A stretch of 64,000 nucleotides of DNA from Antedon mediterranea (GCF_964355755.1 NC_092675.1:28306912-28370911); one strand, 5' to 3'; numbered from the stretch's first letter, positions 15,407 to 50,000 are shown. The notes: a model not told the origin generated them from the sequence alone. A program made the numbers and translations.

Positions 15407-15519
15407 CTTTCCTTCTTGCAGTAACCTACGTTAGGCCTAACGTCTTTTCTTTCCTCGTGTATCTTCGCTAATAAAAACGTAGACACGAAAATAACATAAT
15501 TTACATGTTTACGAATATA

Positions 15520-17978: not shown

Positions 17979-18788
17979 ATTGGATGATCTTATTGGAAAT
18001 GCAATTACTATCCGATCGCGTCGTCCACCTATCCATCCATATAGGCCTACTTTAAGAACTTTATCCCCTTGATTTTAAGGGTTTTACTCGTTTCAGTCTT
18101 TGCTTGCGAAATAAGTCGAATCAATTCGGTCTACTAGTATTGTGGTAAATAACACACATACAACTGGCTATGGTGTGTAAAGTATGGGATATTGTCTTCG
18201 TCCAGTACAGAAAGAAATTTACGACATAAGCGAAATGATTGCTATCATTGTATCAATATTTGTGTTAATTTACTGACACTTGAGTTAATTATATTTAGTA
18301 TAAAATCTTTTATATATATTTCTATTTTTTGACTTTGTATTATTACAAATCGTATTCTCATTTCACGGTCAAATAGATCACAGTAAATGCATTTATTGTA
18401 CAATCGAAGGTATGACCAACTGACTCCAATCCACGCATGACCAATCGCCATTTGTCTAATCTCGCTACAAACAACACTGTTACTACAAAATAATTGCAAA
18501 AAAGTATAAGGATTAATATGGTGGTTCACAACTATTTTTGTTATTTACAAAAGATGACAAAACAGATAATTTGAAAAATATAAAACAAGTTTCACTCGAC
18601 CTCTCTTTCCACAATGTTTGGATTAGCGATAGGCACATCTTAATGCACCTGTATACAGCTCGATAATTACATATAGAATTAAACACACTATCGCACTTGG
18701 TCATTGTGTCATCATCTGCGCACGAAAACGCGCGTAGTGACCGCGCAGAGTCACTAAATGATGTTGATGTTTATTATTTCAGATAAAG

Positions 18789-21700
18789 ATGTCAGTTCAG
18801 GATAGATATTTTGAATTTATTGGCAATGGGAGTATAGCAGATATGGAGACGATGCTGAACACTGCCAGTGATATTGGACTAGACGTGAACGCATTGGACG
18901 CCAATGGACATAATGCCTATGTTATTGCAATAAATGAGGGATTTGATAGTAAGTAAACAAAATACATGTGTACCTTTATCTAAATCCTACACTGGCAATC
19001 GTTTGTTTTCTCAAACTGCAAGTTTGGCAAATAAAAAGTTTGAAGTTTGCTGGTCTAGGCCATCAGTTGACAAACTTCGCTAAACTGCAAACAACAAGTT
19101 CGTAGAAAGAAGTGTAGGCCCAACGCTAGTTTGCTAGTATTATTAAGTATTAAAGACTAGTTCGGTAAAACATTAATAGGCCTACACTGTAAACAATGTA
19201 AACACATTGGGTCAAGTCTGTTAGGTTATTGTTCCGTATTCTTAATTTAATTGGAGGCCTTTTTATGCATGTTTTATGGTGAATAACTGTACATGTATTG
19301 AATAATACTAAATACTGTTAATATTATTGTGTTTTAGTTATTGTCAAAGTTCTTCTGCGGTTTCGCGTCAAAATAGGCGATGCTCTTCTCTATGCCGTTG
19401 AAAATAACGCAGTAGAGGTCGTCAAGATGATATGTTCATACGCCATTACTTTACCTCAGAAAGTGAGTAAGCAGTTATCATTTTCTTAGTAATAATATTA
19501 TCTTTTTAAGCATATTTTCTCCATAAAAAGACCTTCAAGATTTCAAGCCTATTTGTGTTGTAAAATTGCGTTTGGATTTCATTGTCAGTGAAGCGAAGTA
19601 TGCCAATCATCTTTTGTATTCAACTATTATTTTGTAAACCAATTTTCAAATTATTTTGTCAAAGTAATCTAGTGTGATTTGATGAATAAATGTATTTCAT
19701 TTGTTCGTTACATTTACAGAATTGTCAAGAAATTATCGACTGTCGGTGTTCAACTGACGAATTTCCGAAAATATCAACTCCCATCATTCAGGCAGCATTA
19801 AAAAACAACTTCACAATTGTAAAGGTATTATAAAACAAACCTATCAGAAATGATTTTGTATAGGCCAACTTGCATTCGGTACTAGCTATATCATTTAGGC
19901 GTAATACATTATTAGAAATCCGTTAATTTTTGACATAAGCTCACAATTCTATTGTTATCTCGGGTTATGCTGTCAATAAATATATCTGCACTATTCAACA
20001 TAACAAATTTGCTCTCTCTGTTACAATGCGGATTACAAATTCATCCAGAGACCGCACAGGTTTCCATGTTTTTTTAAAATAATTTATCGGCCTAATACTA
20101 CTAGAGTTGGGTAAAAATGAATTAGTATGCGCTCCTGTTGGAACTACCGCTAAATATTAACCAATACCGTTATATTATTACATATTATATAGATCCTTCT
20201 TGAATACGGAGTTCGAATTCCAGATCCTAAAAAGGATTTAGAACATTTTACCGCTCCACCGGAAACATTGGAACGTTCAAAGGAAATGTTGATTGTATAC
20301 CAGGCCCTGGCAAGTGATGCTTACATCACAGGCAGTAGCATTAACCCTTTACAAGCAGCTTTTGATCTTACTAACGAGCTGAGAGGTCTCAGTGAAAAAC
20401 TTGAAGAATTCAGAGATGAATTTAATGATCTAGCACATCAAGTGGAAGCTTATGCAGGGAAGTTATTGGATCAAACTCGAGATACAGAAGAGGTGAGTAT
20501 AGGCCTACAGCTTGACATTGATAAAGTGAGTAGGCCTGCAACTTAACACTGATAAAAGTGAATAGGCCTACAACTTAACACTGATAAAGTCAGTATGCCT
20601 CCAACTTGACATTGATAAAGTGAGTATGCCTACAACTTGACATTGATAAAGTGAGTAAGCCTACAACTTGACATTGATAAAGTGAGTAGGCCTACAACTT
20701 GATAAACTTTCCCTGCACAAATCAAAAAAGGAGTCGCGATACAGCCAGAAACGTTCATGAATGTAACAAGGAATTGAATTAATTATTTATTTCAGATATT
20801 AACGGTTCTTACGTTTACGGACGGACAGAATACTGAACCAGAAATCTCGCACCTGGCGATGGTGGATTATGCATTAGATTGCTCGCAGAAAAATGTAAGT
20901 TATTTTATCGTGTTTAGCACAAATTTACGCTTATATGTCATCTTGTCATAATTGTTGATCGAAAAGAGGCAACATTTAAACAAAATCAGAGTATAGAATA
21001 TGTTTGTTTTGTGACAAACGGAAGCCATTTACTTTTTACTTTCCTTACTTTAAATAAATAAATTCTTGATTGAAATGGAGACACGATATAAAATGTGTTT
21101 AAAAGGGAAGTACATAAAATTAAGCCTTTTACAACTTCACAAAGCTTAATGACAACGACAAAAAAGAAAGATGTACAAAGTTTACGTTTTATGTGAATGA
21201 AATGGGACCGGTTGCTATTGTTTATTGTAGTAAAAGAAAGATAGTCATTTTAGGCCAAATAAAATGGGTGGTGGTAACATTGAAGATGAAAAAATGATTC
21301 AATTAAAGATGTATTGTCCCAAAATCAGACGTTGAATATGTTATTTGTAGTTTTAATAAAGTTATTCACTTTCGTAAAGGAGGACAATACATCTTTAAGT
21401 GGTGCAAAATAACAGTAACAGTAGTCCTGTACTTTGTTTACAAGATGATAGTTATTACGTAACCGTGGTTTCGTTTCTTCACCAGTTTGTTGCTCACCCA
21501 AACTGTCAGAAAGTAGTCATCAATCAATATTTTCGTCACTTGATTCCGTTGAGAGATGCGTCAACAATGATACAGATGTTGACGCAAATATTGGTAATGA
21601 TTGGGTTTCCGTTTCTGTCAATTGCGTTTCTTGTGTACCCGTCAAAGTATATCGTTCGATTCTTACAAGTACCGTGAGTAAACCTTAATTATTATATTCT

Positions 21701-24700
21701 TTGGTCTGTGGTAGGCTATAGTAGGCCTATTACCTACACTTATTTTCTGGGGTACGGTAAGCGAAGAGGTGGAAGTCGGTGGGTCTGAGATACTAGGCGA
21801 TGAACAACTAATTTTGTGTTTACGTTAATGTATGTTAATTACCGATAACTTGCTTTTGAAGGTATGTCAAATTCTTCATGTCAATCGGATCTGAAATAGT
21901 CTTTCTTGCACTTTTGCTGTATGATACAGTGAGTGATATTCGAGAGGGAGCACCTTACATAGCCACTCAGATTTTAATTTCGATTTGGATTTTAGGTGAG
22001 TAGAACCAGAGAGTTAAGTTACAACTTCCGGGTAGAACGTTGTACTTATATCGTTATTGTTTGATATCAAATATCACTACCATGTCCTGGCATATCACTA
22101 CCATATTTGGGTACATCACACTATTTTTGTCAAATTAGTTTAATAATGTAGACAAAGCTTAGACCTACATTTCGGGAACTAACAATATCAATACAACTCC
22201 AGATTCATTTTTTTAATATGATCATTTTCTTTTTCTAGGAAAAACCTGGGCTGAAATACAACGAATGATAAACGATTACGAAACTTTCTTTGGTAGCGAT
22301 TTGATGACTAGTATTTACAACTATTTGCTCTTGGTTTTATTGTTTTCGGTTTTTATGCTGAGATTTGTTGTTTACCTACAGGTACGTTTAGTAATATTTA
22401 GTAATTAATTAATAAGTAATATTTATGAGTGAGAGAGAGAGAGAGTTGACTCGTGAGATTGTGCAAGTATGTTATAATGGAAGTTCTGTGATGGCGCTAG
22501 TTACAATCCGTTATGCATGATAACAGAATGACGTCATGTATAGAAAGTTAAAAATGTAGAACGATTGGTAATCGGGGTACTGGACTGGAGGGAGACCAGT
22601 GTATGTTATGCTACTGTAACAATCAGACGTAATGTAAATAAAGTACAAATGAATTTAGCTAACTTATGGTTATTTTGTACTTGAAAAGAACAGAACAGAA
22701 GCTATATTTACCGACATCATAGTTTGACAAATATATTAATTTATTACCATAAATTACTGTACAAAATGTAATGTATACGTAATCATTTTAACTTTTACTC
22801 TTTATTTAGGATCTGGATAGGTCTTCTTCAACGAGTCAAATGCAAAAACGTGCATTGGACGATGCAATGTTGCAAGAATCGCAATTCCTCACCAACTCTA
22901 TCCCAAGTTTGAAAAGTCACATCTTGGTTTCTCTTAACGAAACGGAAGGTGACGTCAACGCTAATCTAGATGAAAGTCTTGATGTATTTCTCGCTGACCT
23001 CTTGGGGAAATTGACCTGCAAAACTCCAGAGCAGACTACACCTGAACAATGTGCAGAATCCGACACTCGGTTGAGTCTCGATTCTTACAATCCAGTTCTA
23101 GTCACTGAAGCTATGTACTCCTTTGCTATAGTTTTAGCCTTTTTACGTCTTTCCTCAATCGCTGTTATTAACGAATTTGTGGGACCGCTTCAAATTTCTC
23201 TTAGTGGTATGGTGAAAGATATTGCTGTATTTGGTGGAATATTTTTCGTTGTATGGCTTGCCTTCTCCATTGGTATGAATCAGTTGCACAACACATTCCA
23301 AGCCATTGAGTACGATCAGTGTATTCGAGCCATGACAGAGGATTGTCATCGTGGACCATTCAGCTCGTAAGTTTGATCCCAGCCGGTTTAAGTACCGATA
23401 GTATAACTAAAGCTTTGTTCCCACTTGCGCACCTACAAACGAATTTGACCAATCACAACGCGATGGCTCATCCGAACTGTCGATAGTGATTGGTCAACTC
23501 AATTGGCTACGTAGCTGCGGTGTGTAAGTGGTAACCAAGCTATTGTTTCTAGATTTTTCTGTTTTTGCTATTATTGCTATTATGTTTTTATGCGTAATAT
23601 TCAAGTACTGTATAGGCTATTCATACACAAAACGAACAACTTCAACATTCGACCAAACAAATCAAGAGAAATTCAATTACACAAAATTACAAACAACATT
23701 ACCAAAAATGTATTAATTCTCTGAGAGACAGAATAATTTCCATGAGCCAGCAAGCAGATAGTTGCAATGTTATATAATTCATTTTTTAAAGGTTTGCATG
23801 GATGTGAAATAAACACTAGTAAAGTTAGGTTTGTGGTAGACCAGTTTGTAGGTTTCCTAAAGGAAAACAAAAACATGATTGTTTCAACTTTTCGGTTGTA
23901 TGGAGAGAAAAAGACGGTAGCCTAACTTTACCACACTGGAATATTTTTTCAGATGTTTTGTCAAATCCTAAAACTAGGGAATATTACTGTAACTGGTATT
24001 ATTATTGTTTGTTATTTATCTATTTATTAAAGTGTACGGGCATCGTTGGAAACTTTTTACTGGGCACTATTCGGAAACATAGGCTTTGGTTCTTCGTTTA
24101 TTGGAAATGGTGATTTTCTCTTCAGTGAATTGGTCTCTATAATCTTCTTTGCAATTTACATTGTTGCTGCTGTCATTATCTTGTTGAATGCTTTAATTGC
24201 TATGATGAGCAGTACATATTGTACCGTTGAGGTAGGTTTTATGAAATAACGCTTTTAAAGCTCTGTCCACACTATCAAACTAGTTTAACAAAAAAGTGTG
24301 ATATGCATGCCCATGGTAGTAATGCTTAAATATGGTAGTGATATGACATCATCATGACTTTCAGTTTGGTATACTTAATGTCCACACATAGTTGGACGAG
24401 TCGTAACCAACCTATTCGGCATTAATATTTTTTTTTCAAAATTGTTAAATCACAACATTAATATATTTATGTACACTGTATATCAAACAGGAAAACGCGG
24501 ATATTGAATGGAAGTTTTCGAGAACTGCTACGTGGATGACATTTATGAATCCATCTGTTTCACTGCCTCCGCCATTCAATCTAATCCCGTGTGCTTGGAA
24601 CATCTGTAAGAAGGAAGACACCGAACACGATACACAGGTTACATTTCATTTTGCAAATCATTTTTATGTGAAAGTGGCTGTTGTTAATACTGAAAGTTAA

Positions 24701-26294
24701 TGATAATAATAACCATCATTATTTAAATACCATTACCGAAGTTTGCCTTGGATCCAACAAAGGCAATCTAAGAACAGGACGCTGGGCTCTGACTGAAGAT
24801 CAAATGATTTATTATGTGGCTGCGACACGATCAGTTACACGCTCCTTAGACTATGCACATACCGTAGTACAGTGCTGTTGGTAGTTTCGCAGCAAGACAT
24901 AAAATGTTACGAGTTTCTATTTGTCCTGTTGTTAGATTGTCTTGATCCAACTATGCTTTAAAAACTGTCATAATAGTTGATAATGTTTAATTTCAGGGTT
25001 TAAAAGACGAAAATTATTTCAAACGAAAATACCAGGTAATGTTGTAGTTTACATTTACGATAATACATACAGGCCTATCGAAACGAGAGCGAAATCGAAA
25101 AATACACCTGATATGAATTGATTTTAATTTTGTTTTGTTTTTATAGAAAGTGGTTGGGAAGTTAGTTGAACGATTTGCACACGAAGTTACGGCTGAAGAA
25201 ACGAGTACTGGGGGCGGTGTTTCTAAAAGGGATATACAAAGCATTAAGAGTGACATCATGGCTTTCAGGTGAGTTTTATTTACGAAGGCCCTCGTAAAAG
25301 AAAAAACATTCCGTTTTTACGAAGGCCCTCCTAAAGAAATTCCGTTTCGTTTTATTTGTCTCTCTACACAATACAACCGCACAATATAAATATGCATGAT
25401 AGTAAAAACATTTGAAAGGATATCCTTAAAGCTCTGTCCACACTATCAAACTTTAAGTGACAAAAATTGTGATGTGCCCATATATGGAAATGATGATATC
25501 ATATCACTACCAATATTTAAGCATATCACTACCATATTTGTAAAACTAGTTTGAGAGTGTAGACAGAGCTTTGGAGGACTTGCCTAGGTACACATATGAA
25601 AAGAATGAATAAATGGTATTTGTATATTTATAAATAACAGTAAGATAGATGTATATACCAGTATTTAAGTTATACATAAAATGATCTATAGCTCTTACAT
25701 TTTAAATGTAGGTTTGTAACAGGATGTTTAAATAATCAATGGTGACACAAAAACCTTTTACTAGAATATTGTACATGGTAACTGGTTGTTATTTTTTTCC
25801 TATTATGTTAAGGCAGAAACTATAGAGGCCGTGTATATATCATGAATATTTATGATACCGGCCTACTCATGACGTTTTCTTAATTCTTGTACTGTTACCT
25901 TACTTACTAAAATAACCAGTCTTGTACGGTACATTATCATTACAGATACGAATGCAATAATATGCTGAATTTTCTGAATAAAGAAATGGAAGGAACGACG
26001 AGGCAGACACTGTTGACTAGAGATAAACTTGAAATCACTAAAGACATCAAGTCTAAGGCGGAGGATATTAGAAACAGAGTGGCTGAACACAAACAAGGAT
26101 TCACAGAACTGCATGCAGATCTAACAGAAATTCATAAAGAGATTCAACAGAGTGAACGAACAAAACCACCGCCAAAGCAGCAGCCGTTGAAACGCACAAC
26201 TAGTAGCAGGGTGTCGATGATGTCATCATTCTTTGACACCGCTGATGAGACTGGGGGAAATTTAACTGAAGAAGCAAAAGATTTATTTAAATAG
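18789..26294 (+). CDS. Divergent TRPC-family (canonical/short TRP) cation channel, 14 coding exons, ~888 aa
   Basis: Exons 18789-18948, 19338-19462, 19720-19824, 20193-20492, 20796-20894, 21486-21673, 21862-21995, 22239-22381, 22810-23366, 24033-24231, 24491-24637, 24997-25035, 25147-25268, 25946-26294 (2667 nt, in frame). TRPC motifs: ankyrin IGDALLYAV and TPIIQAALKNNF, YQALAS, LLDQTR, FVAHPNCQ, GPLQISLSGM, pore FYWALFG, LLNALIAMMS, TRP box ADIEWKFSR, LPPPFNLIP, coiled coil IKSDIMAFRYE. Confidence 0.93.
20493..20705 (+). repeat. ~31-bp minisatellite (about 7 copies) starting at the exon-4 splice donor of the TRP gene
   Basis: Unit GTGAGTAGGCCTACAACTTGACATTGATAAA repeated with few substitutions. 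Confidence 0.9.
23410..23541. mobile_element. MITE family B copy in a TRP intron
   Basis: AGCTTTGTTCCCACTTG...TTTGACCAATCACAACG...GATTGGTCAA...AGTGGTAACCAAGCT. Confidence 0.75.
25430..25570. mobile_element. MITE family A full-length copy (reverse orientation) in a TRP intron
   Basis: TAA|AGCTCTGTCCACACTATCAAACT...AGTTTGAGAGTGTAGACAGAGCT|TTG. Confidence 0.85.
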
Positions 26295-31419: not shown

Positions 31420-34400
31420 ATGTACCGACTTATTTTTCACATCGGACTCCTTTGTTGGATGGTAAGACAAAGTCATTCGCAGGCATGTGGTGTCAATGCT
31501 CGACAGGGGATCATAAATGGCGACATAAGTATTGGATTTATTTTCCCATTTTCTGGGCCTAGTGAAGACGGAGTTGGTTGCAACACAACGGTACAGTCTC
31601 CAGATAATATTCAACTAATAGAAGCGGCAATACACATTGTGAATTCTATCAACAGCGACCAGATTCTTCCTGGAATAAGCATTGGTATGTAATATTTATT
31701 TTGCTTTAAAACTTTACACTTCCCTGGTTTTTAGTCAGATGTTTCTAAGAAGTTGGTTCTGTACGGAAAGATCCCTTAATTCTTCTTGCATAAAATTCTG
31801 TGAATTCTAGTATAGAAAAGAATATATATATTTTTTTCAGATCTGATAGACGGTTATACTGACGTACTGATTTTTTTTTATAGTAACGATACCGAAACGT
31901 AATGAATGATTGATTACTACAGTATAGATAGATCTGACGAGTAACGTAATGAATGATTGATTACTACAGTATAGATAGATCTGACGGGTAACGTAATGAA
32001 TGATTGATTACTACAGTATAGATAGATCTGACGAGTAACGTAATGAATGATTGATTACTACAGTATAGATAGATCTGACGAGTAACGTAATGAATGATTG
32101 ATTACTACAGTATAGATAGATCTGACGAGTATTAGGCCTAAATATTTACTTCTTATATTCTTCTATCCTTTGCTCTTAAAGGTTTAGAAGCATGGGACAC
32201 CTGCCATCTTTCAAGTGTGGCAGTAGACAGAAGCATTGCTTATTTAAATGAACAGGTGTCGTACACCAACGATGATGGAACAGCATGTTCTTCAACCAGC
32301 CTTTTGGCAGGTAAGTACTGACAAATGTTGATCATCATTGGCAGCATACACTGTACAAGATCCTTCCCCAAGGTATTTCTTCTACATGCAAAACACCCAG
32401 AACTACCCAGCATAGTCATCGGACACGTTGAAGATAGCCAAAGAAGAGAAGAAGTAGATCAACTGTACTTGTATAGAGAAAGCATTTGGAAACTAGTTTG
32501 TCTCTATGATGCACCATCGTTCGCTAATCTCGCATGGCTAACGAAATGAAGCAATTTTATTACGTCAAAGTTGGCGAAAACTTCTGACCAATAGAAATGA
32601 TAAGCAAACATACTAAAGTTACAAGATAACACGATAATGATACCTTTTTATTCTCGTGTTAGGTATGATTGGGTTGTCGGATAATGGACCAGCAACTGCT
32701 GTGACGTCACTCTTAAACGAGGCAATGGTCCCATTTGTCAGTTATGGGGCGTCTTCATCAAATTTGCAGATGTATGATTACTTTCTAAGGACGGTTCCAT
32801 CAGATTTTATGGATGTGGAGGTAAAACTTTCGACTTCAATTGTCAAGTAAACGATCACGATATGGCATAATTCATTGTATATTTGAACTTAACTTAACAT
32901 TCTTGTAATATAACATGTACAATATGAAATTCTGATGAAAATTAATCATATTTTTGTATTTTAAATTCCTAATTTAATAATTAATATAATTGAAACGAAA
33001 ACTCGTGAGGTGGTTTCCCGAATGATCGTAAAATCAAAACGGTACTGGGTATGACCAACTAACGTTCTTGTCACCAACTAGCCATCCATTCATATAGACG
33101 TACTGATGTTGCAGTCTATCCTACCCAGTTTTGATTTTAAAAATCATTCGGGAAACCACCTCACGACGATCACAATATGTATGTATGTATGTGTCATTCC
33201 ATTTACCGTACTTGTTTACTCGCTTTCAGGTAATAGTCAAAGTACTCGTGGAATTGAGGTGGACCTATGTTTACACCTTCACCTCAGCTGATGAATCGAA
33301 TATGGCAGCAAATGAATACTTCCAAATGTTGGCAAAGAACAACGGAATCTGTGTCAGTGACTCGAAAACTGTTTACACGAACTCGAACGACAGTGACTAC
33401 AATTCAATCATTTCTAGCTTTACAGATGGTGGTCCCAATATCGTAGTATTGTTTTCTTCTACAGCCGATTCTATTAGGCTTTTTCAGACAACTCAGAGTA
33501 TGTCAAAGGGTTTGCAATGGGTCATCGGGCGCGAGATTTTGAAAGATAGTATTGGTTTACAGAAAGACACCATTAACGTAACAAGAGGAATGCTTGGTGT
33601 TGCCCCGAGCGTGCTGAGTTCCAAAGTTGAAGCCTTTCAATCCGTCTTCACTGGTGACAACTCACTCAACAGCCAGGCTGATCCATGGTTCGTGGACTAT
33701 AAACTCTTACAAAAGACGAATGTCACACAAAACATGTTTGTAGCACCGTTACAGAATGCCTTCATGTTGTATGCAAACGCACTCCACAATGCGCAGGCAG
33801 ACCAATGCAGTGGAAACGGAGTTTGCGATACTTTAAGAAACATTTCTCCTAATGATCTTATGGGTTATCTAACCAAAGCAGAGTTTGTCGGGGTTGATGG
33901 ATCAAACGTGTCTTTTAGTAGTAATCGTCAGTTGATGAACCAATCCTACGACGTCTTCAATATTGGGTTTGCTAGTGAAACCCAAAATAAACGTTTTTCG
34001 GTAGGTAAAACAATTCATTCACAACACGGAGACACACATAGTTAAATGAACAATTTTAGAGAAACTCTCAACTAAATATTCATATTATGATTAGCCCGTG
34101 TCTAGGAATTGTGCTTTCATTAAAATCATTCCTGTGGGCCTAGTTATATAGGTATTCACTTATGGTACACTATAAACATCATTGCATATTTTTTTGGTGA
34201 TCTGTGTATAGACACTGACCGATATATTATATTTATTTTTAAATCTTTAGGTTGGAAATCTTACAAATAACAATCTTACATTAGAGAAAGATTCGATTCA
34301 TGTTTGGTGGCAAGGTAAGAAAGAGAGAGTATCCGATGTAAACGCCACGTGTGGTAGTCCGTGTCGAGATCTTGCATGTGGAGAGGCAGAGGATTTAACA

Positions 34401-37400
34401 AAGGTAAGCCATTCTTATTCGTTCAGAAGTAATTTCAATTTAACTTCATACACTTATTCCAATAACTAATATGCATAGTGCCTACACTACAGTGCACAAT
34501 CGAGTGATTGCGAACATTTTATTCGTTCAGAAGTAATTGTAATTTAACTTCTAAATCAAATAACTATTATGCGTAGTGCCTACACTACAATACACAATCG
34601 AGTGATTGCGAACTGAACAGACGATTTATCCATTAGGCGCGAAAATGTTGTAGACCTACTGACGTCAATCTGTTCTTACTTGCAGGTTTATATACCAGGC
34701 AACATTATTCTGGGAGGAATGTTCGGAGTACACGATAATGCGCCGTACCCTTCTTCAGCAGGTTGTGGCAATATAAACAACGAAGGAATCCAACAGTTAG
34801 AAGCTCTATTTTACGGTCTTGATTTATTAAACAGCGACAGTTCAGTACTTCCGAATATTACTGTCGGAATTGATGCTTTTGACACTTGTAACTCTCCTAG
34901 CCGAGCTGGGAACATAGCAATTAAACTTGTCAGTGATGCCGAATTTGGTGGTACCGGTTCTGGACAACGGACAGATGCATCGGGCAATATAGAACATGTT
35001 TATGGGATAATAGGTCCTGGATCTGATGATGAGTGTTCCGAAGTTTTGAAAGTGTCCGGCATTTACGATGTTCCTGATATTTCGTACTCTGCCCAATCAG
35101 CGAGTCTTAGTAATACGTATAATTATCCAGAGTTTGCGCGTACTGTATCCGTGGAAACCATGCCGATTGCCGCCATAATTGAAATTCTGGTAGCAAAAAA
35201 TTGGAATTTTGTGCAGGCAGTTATCACTCCGAGTTCGTACGGCTGGAACTCATACAGTGTTTTATCTCAGCAAGCACCGCCTGTAAGTTCAAATTTCATT
35301 TCTAAAGTTCGTAGTAAAGTTGGGCCTAAGAACCCAAGTTCAGTGGTAAATATCGTTCTACAACCTTGTCTCTTTCTTTGTCTAATGATTTCTTCGCGCC
35401 TTTGATAATGTTTGATTTAATTTAACACATTAAGCTCTATATGCTCAAATATGGTAGTGAAATGCTCAAATATGGTAGTGAAATGCTCAAATATGGTAGT
35501 GAAATGCTCAAATATGGTAGTGAAATGCTCAAATATGGTAGTGAAATGCTCAAATATGGTAGTGAAATGCTCAAATATGGTAGTGAAATGCTCAAATATG
35601 GTAATGATATGACATCATCATGTCTATATATGGGCACCTCAAATTTTGATAGTGTAAGACAGAGCTTTATAAACTTCTGCACATTTGTTATGTTACAGAA
35701 AGGAATTTGTGTGACACAGAGAGTGATGCCTAGCAATGCAGTGTCTATGGATTCTCTTATTGAAGATATGACCCAAGGTGATGCCGCTAATGTAACGATT
35801 CTGTTGACTGAAGAAGGTGACACATACCGGTTCTTAACAGAGATTACAGCCAGAAATTTAAATGGAAAATTCTACATAATTGCAGCAACCAAATGGCCAG
35901 TAAATACTGTTACTAATGACATACAAAATGGACTTAAAGGTACATAACAAAAATGGAACTTTTATCAGTTGGCATAAACGTTTCTAATTGTTACAATTCT
36001 TTATGTTATTATATTCGTTTATTTGTAGTTTATATCTTATCGGATTTATTCTATTTTTCAAAGGTTTAACTGTTGTTAACATGAGAGATCGTGACGTCAC
36101 AGGGTTTAAGCAATATTTCAGCAATCTGAAGCCTTCTACAAACCTTCGCAATCCTTGGTTTAGAGAGTATTGGCAGAATGTATTCAACTGTAGTTTTGAG
36201 GACAACAAACAGATGTGTAATGGTTAGTTATTTTAATTTAACGTACATTATCCCAACATCAACATATACGCCATTGTGTTCATCGTTATCATCATCCAAG
36301 GCATAACAATATTTTGTATACAGTATTTTTAATTTTGCAATATTTTTGTTTTGTCTGTATAGTATTGTTTTATATGTATTTAAATATCTTTCATCTCAAG
36401 TGGCCAAGGAGGACAATTATTATATTACATTTATGCTGATTACAGTTCATTTCCAAAAATAAGACTACTTTTACTTCAATGTTTCAAATAGATTCCATGT
36501 CTTTGAAACCCGCTAATGTCACCAATCCGTACGTTGGTGAAGTGGTTGATAGCTTGTATGCAATGGCGTATGGACTTCACACTCTACAGGGTAACAAGTG
36601 TCCTCTGCAAACGTCTGTATGCTACGACATGACCCAATCCACTGGAAATGAACTATTCCTAAATATGAGAAGTGCTAATTTTGAAAGTAGAAATGAAGAT
36701 AAGAAAATGGTGTATTTTAACTATCAAGGAGATGGCAGTTCTGATTATGACATATTTAACTACCAACAAGTTGGTGGAAACCCATTTGAATATGTTAAGA
36801 TTGGCTCTTATACAATGAGCAAATTAGATATAAATGCAACGTTAGTGAAATATTACGACCAGTCTGGTAGAGAAGCCCCTAACGATGGTAATGCTTGCGT
36901 GGGTACTTGCGACAACTGTGAGGCAGTACAGAAAGAAAAGGTGGCGGAGGTACGAAATGGTGATGTTTGGATCGGAGGTAGGCATGTAATTTTTATATAC
37001 ACTAAGATGAAATAGGCCATAACCCGTTACATCAACCAATTGATAGCAGTTAGGCCTACTAAATTTAATTCGGGTATCCTATATTATGCGATAATTGAAT
37101 TATGATACGAAAGCAGAAACAATTTTTTAAAAGTGTGTGTTAACTGTTTTATTGTTCTATAATGTTGATGATGATTTAATCTCTATATCTTTTGGAATGT
37201 CAATATTATAATCTATTTATTCTTTATACAAAAATGCATAATTCTTTGTTTAGGCCTAATTGAAACATTATGGAGTATACTTCGTGTTGCAGCTATAATT
37301 ATTATTCTAAAGCTCTGTCTAAACACTATAAAACTAGTTTGACAAAGAAAGTGTGATGTGCCCAAATATGGTAGTGATATGACATCATCATGTAAATATA

Positions 37401-40400
37401 TGGGCACATAATTTGTCACATAAAGTTTGATTTTGAGCTTTAAAAAATCATTGTGTTCTGATTTTTAGGATTTTTTGAGCTAAATCAACCTGGCAACGAC
37501 CGTATCAATTGTTTAGACGAACTTCTGCCTTACAATATACAGCATCTAGAAGCGTTTATGTGGGCGATTGATGAAGTCAACAAGAATATATCTATATTAC
37601 CAGATATTAACATAGGAGCCATAGCGTTTGATACATGTGGCCTTCCTGAAAAAGCTCGACGCGACGTGACAAACTTCGTCTCAAAGGCGGTTGAATATCG
37701 CTCAGGCTACCCCAAGGATAGCATACGAGTGACTGGAATTATTGGCGGAGAAACTAGTGATTCGTCCATCGAAATCGCAGACGTTATAACACCGTTAAAC
37801 ATTTCCCAGATAAGCTATGCTGCAACCAGTGAAGTTTTGAATGACGTAAACAAGTACCCGTATTTTATGCGCACCGTTTCTACAGATTCAGACCAGGCAC
37901 GCGCTTTGGTTGATATCATAACAAGCTTCGGTTGGACATACGTTTCTGTATTGTATTCTGATGACGAGTATGGTATAGATATGCTTCGTGAATTCAGTAA
38001 AATTGCTCAAAACTCCGACATATGCATCGCAATGAATCTGAAAATTCAGATAAATTCGACAATAAATGACTTTGACCAAAACGTGAAGACGCTGCTAACA
38101 AACAGGCAGTCAACGATTGCTGTTCTTTTGACGTCTGATATTGATACAAAGCAGATCCTTGATGCTGCACAACGTCAGGACGTCTCCAGCATTCAGTGGT
38201 TAGGAACCGAAACATGGGGATCAAGAGGTTATATTACACAGGCTGCTAGAAATACTTCTCAGCGTGCTATAACAATACAATTTCAAGAGACAGTCGCTAA
38301 AGGATTTAAAGAATACTATACTAATTTGAATCCTTATTATAATACTCGTAATCCATGGTTTAGTCAGTTTTGGATGGACAACTTCCAATGCAATCTAAAT
38401 TTGTGGAATGTAGAGAAAAAGTATGATAGTCAATGTCATTGGGATCTAAAACTTGAAGACGATTACGTGGAAGAAGCAGAAGTTACATACATTGCAAACG
38501 CTGTAAAGGCTTTTGCAATTGGACTTAATAAAACTATGCAAATAGTATGTCCTGACGTCACAAAGTAAGCAATTATTTTAAGTTGTTTTAAACAGTAATT
38601 TCAATGAATGAATGTAACATCATAACTTAACAATCTGTACTATTTTTTTAGCTATGTATGTCAGGCTGTTTACAACAATTCGAATTTGCTTAAAGAAAAC
38701 ATACGGTCTGCACAATTCATTGGATTCGGAGGAAAAGAATTCAGTTTCGACGCAGAAGGAAATGGGCCACCCAAGTATGATATTCTGAACTTTGTTGGCG
38801 ATGCCTATAATATGGTAAGATAAAAACCCGATTCTCTGTATCTCCACATATGACCATATTTGTCTAGTAGAATATCATAGGAAAATTCCGAAATACATCT
38901 CTTGTGTATCACATGTGGTGACGGTATCATGTAATGATAGGTTAGTGGTTAGGTTATGGTCTATGTTAGGCGATACATGTGAAACACATGTGATCCTATA
39001 TCATCGCATTTTCCTAATATACTAGACAAATTTAGATACAGTACCAAGTATCGGCTCTTTGATGAGAACGATGATTATAATGACAAACGAATATTAACCT
39101 ACATAGCAAAGTTGTAATCATTCTTTAAATAGTGTTTATAAATCTGACAACAAAATGCTACAATAGCATTCGAAATCAATAAAACAAAAAAAAATCGGAT
39201 ACCCTTAATTAAAGAGGACACTCTCCACTGTATATGTAAGTTTTAAAATGTATTTGTATTCAAAAATTTGTGATAGATTGGTTCATGGGTTAACGGTACG
39301 TTAACCTGGAATGGAACAGACTGGAAAACAGCAGTTGACAACGTAAAATCTGAATGTGTTGGACGATGCACGGAGTGTACAAGAGATGATGAAATTAAGG
39401 TAGCAAATGTATCGGGAGAGTTGCAGATTCCAGCTTTCTTCTCCATTCATGAGCATGCTAATTACAGTGATTGTGGAGCACTTCGTTATTCTGGTATAAT
39501 AAATCTAGAAGCATTTTTGTATGCGTTGGATGAAATTAACCACAGTGAAACTTTGCTTCCCGGTGTCAAACTCGGTACGAACGCGTTCGATACTTGTATG
39601 ACTAGTTCGCGAGCAGTGCGAGAAGCGTCATCTTTACTTGCAGGACTGCTAGACGTTGGAAGTAATGGTTGGTCATCTGTTGTGGGAATGGTGGGGTCTG
39701 AGACAGATGACATAACTAAAGGCTTAGCAGCAGTATCAAAAGAACATCAATATACACAAGTAAGTTTTTAGGAGAGATTTTTGAAAGAGATTAAAAGAGA
39801 TTTGTTTCTTCATTTTATGTGGAACTTATTGCGGCGTTGGTCTTGTTTAACGCAACACGAAGAAACTGGCTGCTGTTAAACTATTTTATCGTCCTTAAAG
39901 AAGAACTTATTTATACTAAATTAGTGTTATTACATTAGAAACTTTTTATTTTACTAGGTAAGCTATGGAGCATTCTCGAATTCCTTCAACGATTTAGATG
40001 AATACCCGTACCTTCTGCGAGCGTTACCGCCATCTTCTGTTTCAATACAAGTCATAGTGGACATCCTCAAGCTCAATAAATGGAATGGTGTCTTTGTGAT
40101 ATACTCAAATACAATGGAAAACAAAACAAGTAAGTAGCATTATGCAAACAAATAAAGAAGTTCTAGAATTAGGTTGATACGGTGGAAAATTCAATTTCCT
40201 TTTTATTTCATTTATAAAATAAGAAGATTCATTAATAAATAGGCTAGGTCTGCTGGGTACTTTTTTATTTAAAGTGTTTAAAAGTTTGAATTGAGTGAAT
40301 CAATGCAACGTTTGTCTGCCACATACAGTACATACAAATTGTTTATTGAATAATACCCAATTTTTCTTTGTAAAATAGATGTAAACGTATTTACTGAAAC

Positions 40401-43275
40401 TGCCGTAAAAGAGGAAATCTGTATTCAGCAACAGTTGATAGTTCCACGTAATGCAGAAGACAGCGAATATACTGAAATAATAAGTGAGATTGCCGGCGAC
40501 CCAGACTCACCAATAGTAGTGTTACTCTTTACAACGTTAACAGATACAAACAAACTACAGCTTGAAGCGACTAAATCAAAGCGTCACATGACATGGATTG
40601 AAGCAGGAGGTATCGGTAAGAAACCTCTAAAGAAAACTGATGTCAGTAGTGCCGTGTCTGGTAGTTTCTACGTGGCACCGACAGCACCTGGGTCAATCAA
40701 GCGTTTTACGGATTATTTCAATATTTTAGGAAAAAACAACAATCGTAATCCATGGTTCGAAGAGTACTTGGAACAAATTAATGGAGGGTGCGATCCTACT
40801 TCTGGAGTAGCATGTACATCGCCTGCTCAGCTCTCCCTGAACGATGCCGATCAATTAATGGTAGGGGCTATATTTGACAGTGTGTTCGCTATTGCGTACG
40901 GGATAGACTCATTGCTGAAGTCAACATGCAGTGGTGGTGATGGTTCTGGAATATGTGCAGAATTCCTCAATCTAACTCCTGACGACCTTTTCAAAGTAAT
41001 TCAAAAGGTAAATGGTAAAGGTATTACTGGTGGAGATTTGGCATTTACTACTGATGGGTATATGATGAGAGATTTTGATGTATATAACTATCAAGAAAAA
41101 GACGATGATTATTCGTTTGTCAATGTAAGTTTCATTAATTCAATTGTTTGTTGTAATAATATTTCTCTAGTAATCATAGGTAATGGGAAATAAAGAAGGG
41201 TCTAGGAAATATGTCCTTTCAAGCTCCCTCAACCTTACCCAACTTAGAGACATCTTAATTGATATCAACAAACATCTTTTTAACTACTACTTACGTCTAA
41301 ACTGTTCATTTATACTTTAAGTTGACAATATTTTAAACAAAGTAATCTACTAACGAAATGATCTTACGCTTTGTAGGTTGGAACATGGTCTAATAAGAAC
41401 AACTTGATCCTTGATTCTGTTGAGTTTTATGGTGATGACGGAAAGACAACCGAATCACTAACTTCAACGTGTAAAGAACGAGTTGTTACTACTGTAACAT
41501 ATCCACCAAAGATGACGACAGATGAATCCGAAAAGAGCCATAATAGTCAGAAACTCACGTCTGAAAAATCTGTAACGGGTAATTTATATTACGTCATCGT
41601 GTGTCTTTGTCTTGTGGGTATAGCGTTAACATTGGCAACAATGCTATATTTTTTCCTTAAGCGAAAGACCTCATTGGTGTCGAAATATTCCTACAGTCTA
41701 TGTACACTACATCTGATTTCAATCCTTTTCTTGTACATTCTGCCTCTTCTCTTTGGAATTGAAGCTTCTGATTCGGTATGTGCTGTACAACATTTTATTA
41801 TTGGACTGGCTTTCGCTGCACGCACAGCAAGTGCATTGTTGATGTCTATTCGGTTGTACCGCACCGGGAAGCACGAGAGAAGGATTTCTGGCGAGAAAAC
41901 AACCCACACAAACGATAGTAGTCAAACAATATTGTTCTGCTGCCTGATGTTAGTTGAGGTGATGTTGATTGTGGAGTGGGTCGTTATTGAACCTCTGGAG
42001 AAACTCTACGTTACCGGCTCAGACGAGACCTTAAAATGTTTTTACGACATGGATGCTCTGGCGATTTCTTTTATTTACATCTTCGTGATGTTGCTGGTGA
42101 CACTTGGTGTAACAATCTGGGCTAGGATGAAAGTGGATTTGGCATACCATCCCCAGATATTTGGTGTCATGATTTCGACTATCGGTAAGAACTTATTTCT
42201 TAAGTGTTCGGTACCAATAAACTGGTATTTGTATGTATATTGAATTAGATATTTGTCACAAAGACAGCCCATTTCACTTGTGGACACTGAGAAGACTCTG
42301 TTAGCAGACTGAAAGCTAGTACAAATTACATTTTATTTTAACTCACTCAATTTACGAAAAACTATTTTGTTGTTGCTATATTTAAGTGAAGTTACCAATT
42401 CATATATATTCATATCTATTGTTTTCCTTTATTTAAATTAAAACCCCACTTTCTTTTCCAGGAACAATGGTGACGTTCATCATATGGATTCTTGCAGCAA
42501 ATATGACCGACAAAGAAGAAGACATTCCAACTTTCATTAGCTTTGGTGCTATTGTCACAGCGACAATTACTCTTATAGTTATCTTCCCGCCAAAAATTGC
42601 TCATATTTACAAACGATATGATCCAAGGTTTGACGATACTGCCAGCATCCTTTCAAGAAGTTCCTCCGTTACTTCAAATGCAAATCGATACGTGGAACCT
42701 CGTAAGTGTTTTAAGTAAATGTACAGTTATCTTAAGCCCTGTCTACACTATCAAACTTTATAATGTGCACATATATGGACACGATGACATCATATGACTG
42801 CCATATTCGGACACGTACACTTCAAGCTAGTTTGATAGTATAGACAAAGCTTTACAGTAAATTACATACATTTATATTACGGGAGATAATATAACTATTG
42901 ATCGAAACAAGCTGTGCGACTGACTTTTCTCTCGGAGAACATGCGGTAATATTATGTTGCCTCTTCTTATAAATGTTGCTGATTTGCACAACTCAATATA
43001 ACACTATCAAAACAAATACACTCTGCTCTATTTCTAAATATGGACCGTTCTTTCTGTACCTGTGTTATAATGTTATTCTACTAACTTCTCAACCCACTGT
43101 GAACAATATAATGTTCGGCTACTGTACTTTACTTGCTAATTGTAATTAAATTGTTAAATATATGTCTGTTTTTCTTTTTGTAGGCAGCACTAGCGCATCA
43201 AACGTAGTTGTTGAAAACCCAGCTGCTCTTGGTGTTTTGGCTGAAGAAGAAAAGGAGGAAAACACTGGCGTATAA
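31420..43275 (+). CDS. Class C (glutamate-family) GPCR with four tandem Venus-flytrap domains plus 7TM, 17 exons, ~2252 aa
   Basis: Exons 31420-31684, 32182-32310, 32663-32820, 33230-34000, 34251-34403, 34686-35282, 35699-35939, 36064-36222, 36492-36977, 37469-38564, 38652-38814, 39277-39759, 39958-40129, 40379-41124, 41377-42184, 42462-42701, 43184-43275; all GT-AG, 6759 nt, one frame. Signal peptide MYRLIFHIGLLCWMVRQSHS. Four copies of the VFT motifs G(D/N/E)xxIGxxF, LPxIxIGxxAxDTC, xSYxAxS, YxxFxRTV, (RN)PWF. 7TM has the TM3 Cys (SVCAVQ), ECL2 Cys (LKC) and TM7 IFPPKI. Confidence 0.92.
31896..32131. repeat. Minisatellite, 5 x 47 bp, in the first coding intron of the GPCR
   Basis: AACGTAATGAATGATTGATTACTACAGTATAGATAGATCTGACGAGT at 31896, 31943, 31990, 32037 and 32084. 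Confidence 0.95.
33003..33166. mobile_element. Inverted-repeat (MITE-like) element in GPCR intron 3
   Basis: TCGTGAGGTGGTTTCCCGAATGAT..AAAATCAAAAC pairs with GTTTTGATTTT..ATCATTCGGGAAACCACCTCACGA (24-bp perfect outer arm). Confidence 0.75.
34415..34613. repeat. Two-copy ~100-bp tandem duplication in GPCR intron 5
   Basis: TTATTCGTTCAGAAGTAATT...ATGC.TAGTGCCTACACTACA..CACAATCGAGTGATTGCGAAC occurs twice. Confidence 0.85.
35433..35667. mobile_element. MITE family A copy with an internal 21-bp minisatellite (about 8 copies)
   Basis: (ATGCTCAAATATGGTAGTGAA)n at 35441-35603, followed by the family-A tail ATATGACATCATCATG...GATAGTGTAAGACAGAGCT. Confidence 0.9.
37310..37440. mobile_element. MITE family A copy in GPCR intron 9
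   Basis: TAA|AGCTCTGTCTAAACACTATAAAACTAGTTTGACAAAG...GTCACATAAAGTTTGAT..GAGCT|TTA. Confidence 0.85.
38827..39055. mobile_element. Inverted-repeat element, family D copy in GPCR intron 11
   Basis: CCGATTCTCTGTATCTCCACATA...GATACATGTGAAACACATGTGAT...AGATACAGTACCAAGTATCGG; shares blocks with 48898-49088 and 17830-17978. Confidence 0.7.
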
Positions 43276-47092: not shown

Positions 47093-50000
47093 TCATTTTG
47101 GACCGTATTCTGCATAGAATGTATTCACTCTTTGAAGAAGATGTCGGTTACGTTCATCCGCTGATCTTCTGGCAGATTCCTGTAAACAAAATGATTTTCA
47201 AAATAATTTAATAATAATAATTTAATAATTTTCTCAGCCGAAACGTATACAAACATATTTATTAATACAGTATTCAGTTTTAATACAATTTGTCTTGTCA
47301 TGTTTTCAGCCAAATACATAATATATCTTCTGGACTTGTCTACGATATATCAAACTAGTTTGACAAAAAAAGTGTGATGTGTCCAAATATGGTAGTGATT
47401 TGATGTCATTGTGACCATATATGAGCAAATCACATGTGAGCTTATGGTCAGTATTTTATTGACCTTCAAGCAATAATAAATAAGTTAGTATGAAATTATT
47501 AAATTTATAAATAATATATCCTACCTCATTCAAATATTTTATCTCCAATGCATCATATTTCATTTGCATTTTTGTCGTTTTCTGCTCATATTCTTCTTTT
47601 TGTCTCTTTAATTCCATCTTCAACATCTCTACCTGTTGTTGAAGATGTTCATACGTCAGGGTGTGATCAATCACTGGTGCTACATCCGGAATATTCGCAT
47701 TTATCTCCTGAGGCGGTTTCGGTGGCCGTTCCGGCACTGGGTGAACGTAATTTGGCGGGATACCATTTGAATGAGGTGTAATAGCATCGTTGTATGAAGA
47801 GAACCTTGGTATGTATGCTTCATCATCGATAAGAATTGAGTTGTTACGATTTGGTTTAGCATACTGACCATTAGATTTTGATGATGCAGATATTACCATT
47901 TGATCTACACTTGTAATAACCTCTTGGGTAACTGAAAACATTTCATCAACGCTAGGATTTCTCGTTTTGAATTTCTCCCGTTTCACTACAGGTCCATCGT
48001 CAATATCTATTAATTTACCTTCAGCGACAGTGTTGTAGCTATCCTCGTTGGCTTTTACCTCTTTTATGAGGTCTAAATGCACGTTTGTGGGCGGGTTCTT
48101 TTTTCGTGGAGGCGCTACGGGAATGTTTGTTTGACGGTATGGTTGAATTGGTACCAATTTCTGTAAAGCTGGAGCAGTGTTTACATTAAAATCTATCATA
48201 TCATTCGGTGGGAACATCTCTTTATGTTTTTCTATAATTAAATGCACAAACTGTTGACTAAGTGATGTAGACTGCATCAACGATGCTGGACTATCTGTGT
48301 TTGGCCGAATAATATTTGGTCCGAAAACTGTAGCGATGTTTTGGACAGTCATTTTATTTTTATCTTCATGTAATGATACGTTATGTAGAAAAATACACAT
48401 GTACCGCAAAAGGTTGTAGTTAGTACGTGGCAAAAGAGCCAGTTGCTTTATAAGTTCTTTTTTGCCCTTTTCGGAATTCTGCAGGAAAAGTTTAATACCG
48501 TTCATGATGTCATCATAATGTGCCCACGGTATAACTGGTTCCGGTAACTCACGTAGATACAGTTTTAATAGAGATGCGACTGTATGTATATCAACATGTT
48601 GTTTGTCAAAATCTGGCTTATCTCCACAATCAAATGAATCCTGCAGTGTTTTGATCATGCTTGACCGACCTGGCAACCTATTAACAAAAGCAACAACAAT
48701 AATTAAAATAAATATAAATATGTAACAAAAATTTAGAATTTCATCTTTGATTAAATTAACTTTTTCACACAGGATAAAATATAGCCTCCCCTTGGGGCTT
48801 CTGCTACTCATCCTATTTTTGAGACAGCGATTTTGTTTAAATTAACGAAATCTTGTGAAATGTCCTTTTAAGAACATTTCTCAAGATTTAAAAATCACCC
48901 GATTCCCAGGGCTGTATCTCCACATACTATATATTTTCTAAGTAACAAAGGAACAGTTGATGTGGTAGCTGCCAGTATCATATAAGGTCAGAGGTTAAAG
49001 ATTACTACTAGATACATGTGAAACACATGTGATGTATTAGCAAATATTCCTGTGATACTGAAGAAATAGATACAGTATCGAGAATCGTCTGTTTAACTAC
49101 AGTATAAGGAAATTGAAAACATTTTTGACTCACTGCTATGTTTTTCACAATACTACAGTCTCTCAATACAGTCTCTTAATATACTATAGTATGTAAAAGA
49201 ATAGTAAAAGCTACCTGAATATGCCTTCTTCAAGGAGTCCATTTTCTACTATGTAATTAACACACTGCTCTACTATTGATGGTATCATCTTGGTAGACGT
49301 TGTACTTTCATTGGTTATAATGTCCAGTAGACTTTGGCCAAACACACCTTATTAAAACAATTAAAAATCAAATCATTTTAAACTTTGAATAGATAGGCAC
49401 GGCAAGAAAATTTCTCAAACGAAAATGAAAATGTTTTAGGGTAGAATTATACATGTCTTAACATGCATAAAATTGCAATATATTTGTATTTAATTTTTAA
49501 TGATATTCGGAAATTAAATGAGGGTGGCTTATCCAGTAAAGGAACTGATCATTAAGGGCCCTTGATAAAACATATAGGACTAGTACTAGTACATCACAGT
49601 CACTGATCATCAACTGGGCCCTCTGGGAGACCAGTCTTTGACTGAAGAGGTCGCCCAGTATAAATATAAATAAATAAAGGATATTCATAACAAAAGCATT
49701 AAATCTCTACATTAAAAATTATAATAATTTTAAATTGTTGACGGATACAAAATATAGAAAAAATTTTACTTATCTAGAAATAAATCATTTAAGTTGGATT
49801 GTGAAGGAGTTAAATGGCAACAGAAAGTTTTATGTTAACAATATGGATTTTGGTAAAATACATCTAAGCTAACTAAACAATTGTTTTCTTTCTTTTATTT
49901 AATTTGTCACACTTTAAATACAAATGTTTGTATTAGTAAGCAGGTATCAGAGAAATAATAAATGTAGTAATCAAATTAATTATAAATAGAGATAAAAAAA

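Follow-up and report, generated by a model that had tools for sequence, protein, structure and literature searches.

A class C receptor of Antedon mediterranea with four flytrap domains, of which the third alone keeps the complete amino acid-binding motif

The window, a stretch of 64,000 nucleotides of Antedon mediterranea DNA (GCF_964355755.1, NC_092675.1:28306912-28370911), encodes a G protein-coupled receptor (GPCR) of class C with four tandem Venus flytrap domains (VFT1-4). Only VFT3 retains the complete amino acid-binding motif, and the same pattern is found in orthologues of this lineage. The comparisons point to a real and conserved division of pocket constraint in a variant class C GPCR, and the family is apparently undescribed. 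VFT3 probably binds an L-amino acid other than glutamate and is predicted to relay its closure through a probably blind VFT4 to the seven-transmembrane domain (7TM). The class C activation model has one flytrap per subunit, a dimer formed through lobe 1, and a rigid cysteine-rich domain (CRD). Here, one intact amino acid site has been kept since the echinoderm-hemichordate split despite four flytraps, the lack of a CRD, and an apparently eroded dimer face.

The amino acid motif in the four flytraps

The motif scored is composed of S150, S/T173, R188, D193, Q196, Y221, G222, and D/E307 in OlfCa1 numbering (PMC1764893; papers are cited by PMC number for the passages concerned). Residues were assigned from three alignments: phmmer to the metabotropic glutamate receptors (mGluRs) in the PDB, MAFFT, and HMMER to a profile of 31 single-VFT receptors, with a posterior of at least 0.85 at each window motif site in the profile alignment. 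The OlfCa1 sites were matched to mGluR1 numbering by correspondences that we take to be the standard ones. For the short exons 3 and 13, phmmer gave no match at E 1e-4, so the motif sites in these exons rest on the multiple and profile alignments.

VFT3 keeps 8/8 motif residues (S,T,R,D,Q,Y,G,E). VFT1 keeps 4/8 (N,S,R,D,D,S,N,E), VFT2 3/8 (D,Q,R,E,P,Y,G,T), and VFT4 1/8 (D,F,R,S,S,E,N,G); one MAFFT run moved the last VFT1 site by one residue, which lowers VFT1 to 3/8. The first-pass annotation of the window, made by eye, had proposed that VFT3 alone carries the canonical signature. The motif strings that it quoted are all present, the proposal holds in all three alignments, and the alignment to mGluRs that it had called for shows the key residues unequally kept, with VFT3 complete. 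Its picture of VFT1 as degenerate stands in part: the motif is incomplete, but the Ser at the Thr site, R203, D208, and the Glu at the D318 site are kept and had been overlooked.

In VFT1, VFT2, and VFT4, the losses are concentrated on ligand contacts more than expected by chance. These domains retain 87/126 other conserved scaffold residues versus 3/15 core ligand contacts (Fisher p 3e-4, calculated on the MAFFT run with the shifted VFT1 site; the better alignment gives 4/15). This focus is hard to reconcile with drift after tandem duplication, by which VFT3 would simply be the least diverged copy, without any division of labor. VFT3 is indeed nearest to single-VFT receptors overall (397 bits versus 239-335). 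On the other hand, VFT1, VFT2, and VFT4 keep their frame, cysteines, and scaffold, and in a near relative represented by a contig from sequencing run X9 the gaps within VFT4 (12 and 3 nt) are in frame. VFT3 also remains intact in the orthologues of a crinoid, a holothurian, and enteropneusts, and its motif columns are invariant there. Drift is thus largely refuted by the orthologue scores and the column constraint, and we regard it as very improbable.

Conservation of the third flytrap among orthologues

Orthologues were collected from a HMMER search of 1.84 billion representatives, of which the best 150 of 5696 matches were used, plus cluster look-ups. The closest named protein among those best 150 is that of the crinoid Anneissia japonica, at 59-75% identity by domain. 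Word-seeded searches with exon 10 returned 2 and 1 distant proteins, under length ranges that excluded the 2250-aa orthologues.

The motif scores of VFT1-4 are 3,3,8,2 in Anneissia, 3,3,8,1 in the sea cucumber Apostichopus, and 5,4,8,3 in the acorn worm Saccoglossus. A fragment from a second acorn worm, Ptychodera, scores 8 for VFT3 and 4 for VFT4, and VFT3 of fragment P0052 also scores 8. VFT3 has 8/8 in 6/6 orthologues that cover all motif sites. The partial VFT3 fragment P0108 keeps all 3/3 sites that it covers, and a VFT2 fragment, P0097, scores 6. In a quick tree of 66 rows, the domains cluster by position with Shimodaira-Hasegawa approximate likelihood ratio test (SH-aLRT) support of 97-99, and the VFT3 branches are the shortest.

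VFT3 is the most conserved region in 6/6 pairs of full-length orthologues; between classes, its identity is 41-48%, compared with 28-39% in VFT1, VFT2, and VFT4 and 23-31% in the 7TM. Its motif columns are invariant in 7/8 cases versus 119/453 other columns (p 0.0006), while the numbers for VFT1 (2/8), VFT2 (1/8), and VFT4 (0/8) are no better than background. Against the X9 relative, exon 10 has 31 differences and a ratio of nonsynonymous to synonymous rates (dN/dS) of 0.27, a value that covers exon 10 only, and no motif residue is changed. Because the 8/8 score recurs, the motif columns are invariant, and VFT3 is the most conserved region, the VFT3-only intact motif is an old pattern, maintained by selection in this lineage. 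The differences in exon 10 are unevenly spread: the first 590 nt (37469-38060) have 4, of which 1 is nonsynonymous, and the remainder (38061-38564) has 27. Synonymous rates are also five-fold apart between the two parts.

The third-flytrap pocket and its likely ligand

The best PDB match of exon 10, which holds most of VFT3, is mGlu3 (phmmer E 7.5e-62), with CaSR lower at E 5e-36. An alignment-based AlphaFold2 model of exon 10 has a mean predicted local distance difference test (pLDDT) value of 90.7 and matches mGlu3 (2e4u/5cnk) at a template modeling (TM) score of 0.89 in Foldseek; a single-sequence model (pLDDT 41) was discarded. The alignment-based model is most like closed, agonist-bound mGluR forms, which was not counted as evidence of binding. 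The window receptor therefore shares with mGluRs the VFT fold, the backbone clamp in VFT3, and a 7tm_3 domain. It differs from them in having four VFTs per chain, no nine-cysteine CRD, an apparently eroded lobe-1 dimer face, and a separate 7TM clade.

The R78 and K409 residues of class I-III mGluRs are absent from VFT3. The R78 site is His1012 and the K409 site is Glu1324, where the reference row has R and K, and orthologues have H, L, or Q at the first site and mostly E at the second. The same pair is lost in class IV mGluRs, in which the backbone contacts are kept and glutamate gives no response (PMC6307864); DmXR, grouped here with class IV, is activated by L-canavanine (PMC9138782). Since VFT3 is without the glutamate residues R78 and K409, its ligand is likely an L-amino acid other than glutamate. 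An Arg at the R323 site is invariant in 7/7 sequences, presumably with the role ascribed to R323. The distal pocket as a whole is mixed, so no particular side chain can be named.

Fish OlfC receptors, 5.24, GPRC6A, and CaSR use the same eight-residue motif, with Glu allowed at the last site and a free distal pocket. In goldfish receptor 5.24, mutation of any one of the 5 core residues lowers activation (PMC1764893 for both). Unlike the window receptor, these receptors have a single VFT and a CRD, and the match to them is lower than that to mGlu3. The claim in the first-pass annotation of a division of labor with VFT3 as the L-amino acid site is supported by the recurrence of the full motif and the invariance of its columns.

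Flytraps 1, 2, and 4

The altered pockets of the other flytraps could have been retuned rather than silenced. VFT3 would then read the amino acid, VFT1, VFT2, or VFT4 would read amines, sugars, peptides, or ions, and the single chain would act as a coincidence detector. VFT2 offers a case for such a multi-ligand integrator. Across five sequences, its Ser site is always Asx (D,N,N,N,D), its Tyr site is kept in 5/5, and Asp stands at the D318 site in three, a pattern that would suit an amine without a carboxylate. VFT2 is also 72% identical to that of Anneissia, with the same motif residues at 7/8 sites. The R203 and D208 of VFT1 are kept in 4/4. An Asp at the Ser site is also found in Branchiostoma multi-VFT proteins, and many mollusc receptors have 2-4 intact sites. 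However, the motif columns of VFT1, VFT2, and VFT4 are not under extra constraint among four orthologues (p 0.34, 1.0, and 0.60), those of VFT2 being no more constrained than the remaining domain, and the VFT2 Thr site varies (Q,Q,D,G,G). The Asp itself is exchanged for Asn or Gln, as in VFT4 (D,D,Q,D,N), and no charge is conserved; the earlier suggestion that Asp at the Ser site of VFT2 and VFT4 suits cationic ligands is accordingly weak. On balance, we judge the integrator unlikely, though it is the strongest of the alternatives.

VFT4 had been proposed to be ligand-blind, like GABA-B2, on account of a bulky Phe at the Thr site. Phe1573 is found in this species only; the four orthologues have S, V, S, and T, which rules it out as a conserved pocket block. 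Ligand blindness itself is favored by other evidence: drift is faster at the VFT4 motif columns (pairwise identity 0.19) than elsewhere in that domain (0.34), which fits a ligand-blind domain. Blindness of the membrane-proximal flytrap is no general rule, as this domain is intact in 6/14 five-VFT or mollusc-type receptors, and the likeness to GABA-B2 is loose, GABA-B2 being a dimer partner and VFT4 a part of the same chain.

Linkers, 7TM, and signal relay

Three-cysteine linkers stand at each of the examined junctions between VFTs, all VFTs keep the lobe-2 Cys, and the window receptor has no nine-cysteine CRD motif. The mGluR/CaSR/T1R layout, one VFT followed by a nine-cysteine CRD, is thus absent. 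In mGluRs, the VFT is disulfide-bonded to the CRD. By analogy, the three-cysteine linker and the lobe-2 Cys suggest a disulfide tether from each flytrap to the next domain.

We consider the following mechanism probable. S1083, T1106, and D1126 of lobe 1 and Y1154 and E1234 of lobe 2 would grip the alpha-carboxyl and alpha-amino groups of the amino acid, and the lobes would close. The lobe-2 Cys of each VFT would bond to the three-cysteine linker and tether that flytrap to the following one. Because each flytrap would be tethered in this way, closure of VFT3 would move VFT4 in cis, and VFT4, likely ligand-blind, would pass the closure on to the 7TM. VFT1 and VFT2 would serve as spacer, assembly, or modulatory storeys; of the window VFTs, VFT1 has the helix B most like that of mGluRs. 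VFT3 is the likely sensor and the others likely serve other, chiefly structural roles because only VFT3 keeps the full signature, both here and in relatives.

Several points weigh against this reading. The score of 8/8 for VFT3, taken alone, is within the rate of its own scaffold (p 0.19), as drift would have it, although it recurs in orthologues; the homologue search used VFT3 as its query, which biases toward relatives with a conserved VFT3. The partial VFT3-like fragment P0093 keeps 4/6 sites, the D site being N and the Q site H. Loss of the motif does not necessarily imply ligand blindness, as most V2Rs are without the motif and in human T1r2 the Thr site is Ile (PMC1764893, PMC5457512). 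Conversely, a complete motif need not drive activation: T1r3 binds its amino acid loosely and has an auxiliary role (PMC5457512). Large hydrophobic residues fill 2.3/5 sites of the lobe-1 dimer face in VFT3 and 3.3/5 in VFT1 (domain range 2.3-3.3, counted from three orthologues) versus 4.8 in 30 single-VFT receptors. The site numbers of this face are those that we presume. The stalk is unconserved among orthologues. Finally, K3.50 and E6.35 of the 7TM are both lost in this species and Anneissia and are kept in 31/36 multi-VFT 7TMs.

K3.50 and E6.35 form the ionic lock of class C GPCRs (PMC11621567, PMC11437087). The K3.50-D/E6.35 lock, common in class C but not universal (GPR156), is absent here, and the usual class C activation route looks altered in this receptor. 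The amino acid in VFT3 could be a structural or permissive cofactor of a receptor that is constitutive or uncoupled, as a decoy, scavenger, or scaffold. The two closest sequences have lost both partners of the lock and Apostichopus one of them, and GPR156, without the 6.35 acid, is constitutively active (PMC11621567). The 7TM is less conserved than VFT3, the opposite of fish OlfC receptors (PMC1764893), and an apparently eroded dimer face and an apparently flexible stalk fit as well. Yet Saccoglossus, with the same VFT pattern, retains both K3.50 and E6.35, and GPR156 requires K3.50, so its behavior does not carry over directly. R3.53, the R-I-x-G of intracellular loop 2, and the cysteines of transmembrane helix (TM) 3 and extracellular loop 2 are kept, as is the Lys of TM7, for which Apostichopus has Arg; FPPK is retained in TM7 of the window receptor. 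An uncoupled receptor thus seems quite unlikely. The cis relay from VFT3 remains the reading that we favor, followed by the integrator, then the constitutive or uncoupled receptor, and last drift.

The wider multi-VFT family

A total of 163 proteins were parsed, and 35 of them, counting the window receptor, combine two to five VFTs with a single 7TM and lack a CRD. With Apostichopus added, 35/36 multi-VFT 7TMs fall into one clade, separate from 26 mGluR-like 7TMs (SH-aLRT 100) in a tree built without CaSR, T1R, GABA-B, and GPRC5. The window receptor shares the features of bilaterian multi-VFT proteins: tandem VFTs, three-cysteine linkers, the lack of a CRD, and the 7TM clade. In the domain tree, ambulacrarian, mollusc, and arthropod N-terminal VFTs fall into one group.

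A domain was called intact if it kept at least 7/8 motif residues, under automatic alignment and with partial domains included. The motif is intact in 31/31 single-VFT receptors. In the five-VFT or mollusc-type set of 14 proteins, the domain second from the membrane is the most conserved one and is intact in 9/14. Mollusc five-VFT receptors (P0013, P0015-P0018) share with the window receptor the 7TM clade, the three-cysteine linker, and an N-terminal VFT that groups with VFT1 (SH-aLRT 97). They differ in having five VFTs, often several intact sites, and a kept ionic lock.

Three observations limit how far the single-sensor reading extends. Five-VFT or mollusc-type receptors carry 0-4 intact domains each, 11/11 arthropod-type four-VFT receptors have 0, and in a three-VFT paralogue from Lytechinus it is the N-terminal domain that carries the intact site. 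Judged from these sequences, the arrangement with one sensor second from the membrane is fixed in this group of ambulacrarians and often seen in molluscs, without being a family rule. The approximately unbiased (AU) test rejected one-to-one orthology between VFT3 of the window and the penultimate VFT of molluscs (p 0.0016, 26-row set), as was cross-phylum orthology of the proximal domains (p 0.03); both tests predate the inclusion of ambulacrarian orthologues.

The arthropod-type receptors (P0039, P0040, P0041, P0042, P0050, P0053, P0054, P0056, P0075, P0125, and P0170) are of scorpion, mite, tick, and cricket type. Every domain scores 0-4/8, yet the ionic lock persists in almost all of these receptors, a combination that suggests ligands of an entirely different class. 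Another 17 proteins make up a sister family with two VFTs, the same three-cysteine linker, a single transmembrane helix, and tails of 65-570 aa, six of which end in -ISRV, resembling a PDZ ligand. Both VFTs mostly score 7-8/8. Its members are P0063, P0064, P0068 (from the bivalve Sinanodonta), P0077, P0087, P0089, P0091, P0114, P0116, P0119, P0124, P0135, P0136, P0140, P0155, P0160, and P0167.

Long entries from Polypterus, Pelobates, and Actinia (P0012, P0014, P0019, P0020, and P0021) have several CRDs or 7TMs and look like fused gene models; they were rejected as multi-VFT proteins and used as single-VFT references only. Fusion of tandem single receptors in gene prediction is a trap when multi-VFT proteins are counted. 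A search of the ESM Atlas gave generic ANF_receptor clusters only, and a metagenome scan found 8 loci, 0/8 multi-VFT.

Known systems and meaning

Unequal flytraps are also found in T1r2/T1r3 and GABA-B1/B2, in which one site is the main one and the other is auxiliary or blind (PMC5457512). Those receptors split the roles between side-by-side subunits, whereas the window receptor does so within a single chain, from domain to domain. Unequal roles of tandem VFTs are known from BvgS, in which the distal VFT1 is mobile and the proximal VFT2 closed (PMC4352136), and from trypanosome adenylate cyclases (PMC6027212). Unlike the window receptor, BvgS/EvgS kinases and the trypanosome cyclases have two VFTs and a kinase or cyclase output, with no GPCR.

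A literature search, with supplements and subscription journals outside its scope, found no description of multi-VFT GPCRs, and database entries for these receptors are mostly 'uncharacterized'. A survey of metazoan class C receptors gives single-ANF layouts only in the passages concerned, the canonical one of a VFT with a CRD included (PMC12716839), and the term-matched passages of PMC6267866, PMC2246102, PMC7042368, PMC6408891, and PMC4302439 do not mention multi-VFT GPCRs.

The receptor offers a natural example of division of labor inside one chain, and names the domain and residues to examine first in deorphanizing multi-VFT receptors. Most echinoderm chemoreceptors are orphans, and the receptor may bear on how these animals sense nutrients or other chemicals. 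More tentatively, and with the balance of probability against it, multi-VFT receptors may be an undescribed bilaterian GPCR family without the lobe-1 dimer switch, with the ligand sensed one flytrap above the membrane-proximal one and a disulfide-tethered cis relay through a blind flytrap, in which each lineage has independently chosen its sensing storeys and the remainder bind new chemistry. If so, the amino acid-sensing storeys would number one in Ambulacraria, up to four in molluscs, and none in arthropods.

Gene model and coordinates

The encoded protein is composed of a leader, VFT1-4, a Ser/Thr-rich stalk, the 7TM, and a short tail, as assigned by Pfam and alignment (Table 1). Pfam ANF_receptor (VFT) matches are found in exons of all four VFTs, and the 7TM region has seven hydrophobic segments. 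A contig of 7065 nt from run X5 spans the exons; the offsets of its 8 listed pieces fit the model to the base, and the lengths of small exons unlisted in it also agree. Four GT..AG joints are seen directly in the X9 contig. The 17-exon model is a real single gene and no fusion artifact, because the X5 contig passes through the exons with matching offsets.

The window VFTs are just 23-27% identical to each other, and a phase-0 intron lies at one shared alignment column in three of the four, a pattern that tandem copies of great age should show. A test of whether the four window VFTs are monophyletic did not reject this (p 0.094), nor is it thereby shown.

Table 1. Features of the four-flytrap receptor gene in window coordinates.
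Feature	Residues or detail	Coordinates	Strand	Remarks
Class C GPCR coding span	2252 aa; open frame 6759 nt	31420..43275	+	17 coding exons
Gene start and end	ATG; stop	31420; 43275	+	exon model
VFT1	aa 30-480	31507..34367	+	exons 1-5
Linker VFT1-VFT2	C-x3-C-x4-C	34350..34379	+	three-Cys, cut-down CRD; coordinates counted back
VFT2	aa 493-965	34686..36913	+	alignment
Linker VFT2-VFT3	C-x3-C-x2-C	36896..36919	+	three-Cys; coordinates counted back
VFT3	aa 977-1437	36947..39369	+	sole domain with complete amino acid motif
Exon 10	most of VFT3	37469..38564	+	coincides exactly with the span first annotated
Linker VFT3-VFT4	C-x3-C-x2-C	39355..39378	+	three-Cys; coordinates counted back
VFT4	aa 1449-1909	39403..41484	+	membrane-proximal; alignment
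Stalk	Ser/Thr/Lys-rich	41485..41583	+	no cysteine-rich domain; little conservation between classes
7TM		41584..42604	+	Pfam 7tm_3, E 6e-26
VFT1 motif residues	N139, S162, R174, D179, D182, S207, N208, E286	33533 (E286)	+
VFT2 key residues	Asp606 (Ser site), Gln629 (Thr site), Tyr677 (kept), Thr755 (Asp site)	35025 (Asp606)	+
VFT3 motif codons, first four	S1083, T1106, R1121, D1126	37756, 37825, 37870, 37885	+
VFT3 motif codons, last four	Q1129, Y1154, G1155, E1234	37894, 37969, 37972, 38209	+
VFT3 distal pocket	H1012 (R78 site), E1324 (K409 site), R1239	37543, 38479, 38224	+
VFT4 key residues	Asp1550, Phe1573, Glu1621, Gly1701	39706 (Asp1550), 39973 (Phe1573)	+
7TM residue 3.50	Met2029	41842	+	alignment
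7TM residue 6.35	non-acidic (Gln/Pro)	near 42154	+

Neighboring genes and repeats

A multi-exon gene for a TRP (TRPC-like) channel lies just upstream on the same strand (about 18770-26290, +; Pfam TRP_2 and a weak Ion_trans). Other features are a 628-codon open reading frame (ORF) upstream (13544-15430, -), for which a Pfam scan gave no match, and a RhoGAP-domain ORF downstream (47456-48841, -; Pfam). Intronic tandem repeats with units of 47, 98, and 21 bp are found at 31896-32131, 34410-34613, 35441-35611, 37320-37430, and 42735-42850. An interspersed repeat of very high copy number, with a depth in the hundred thousands, accounts for the 21-bp array and for two further spots.
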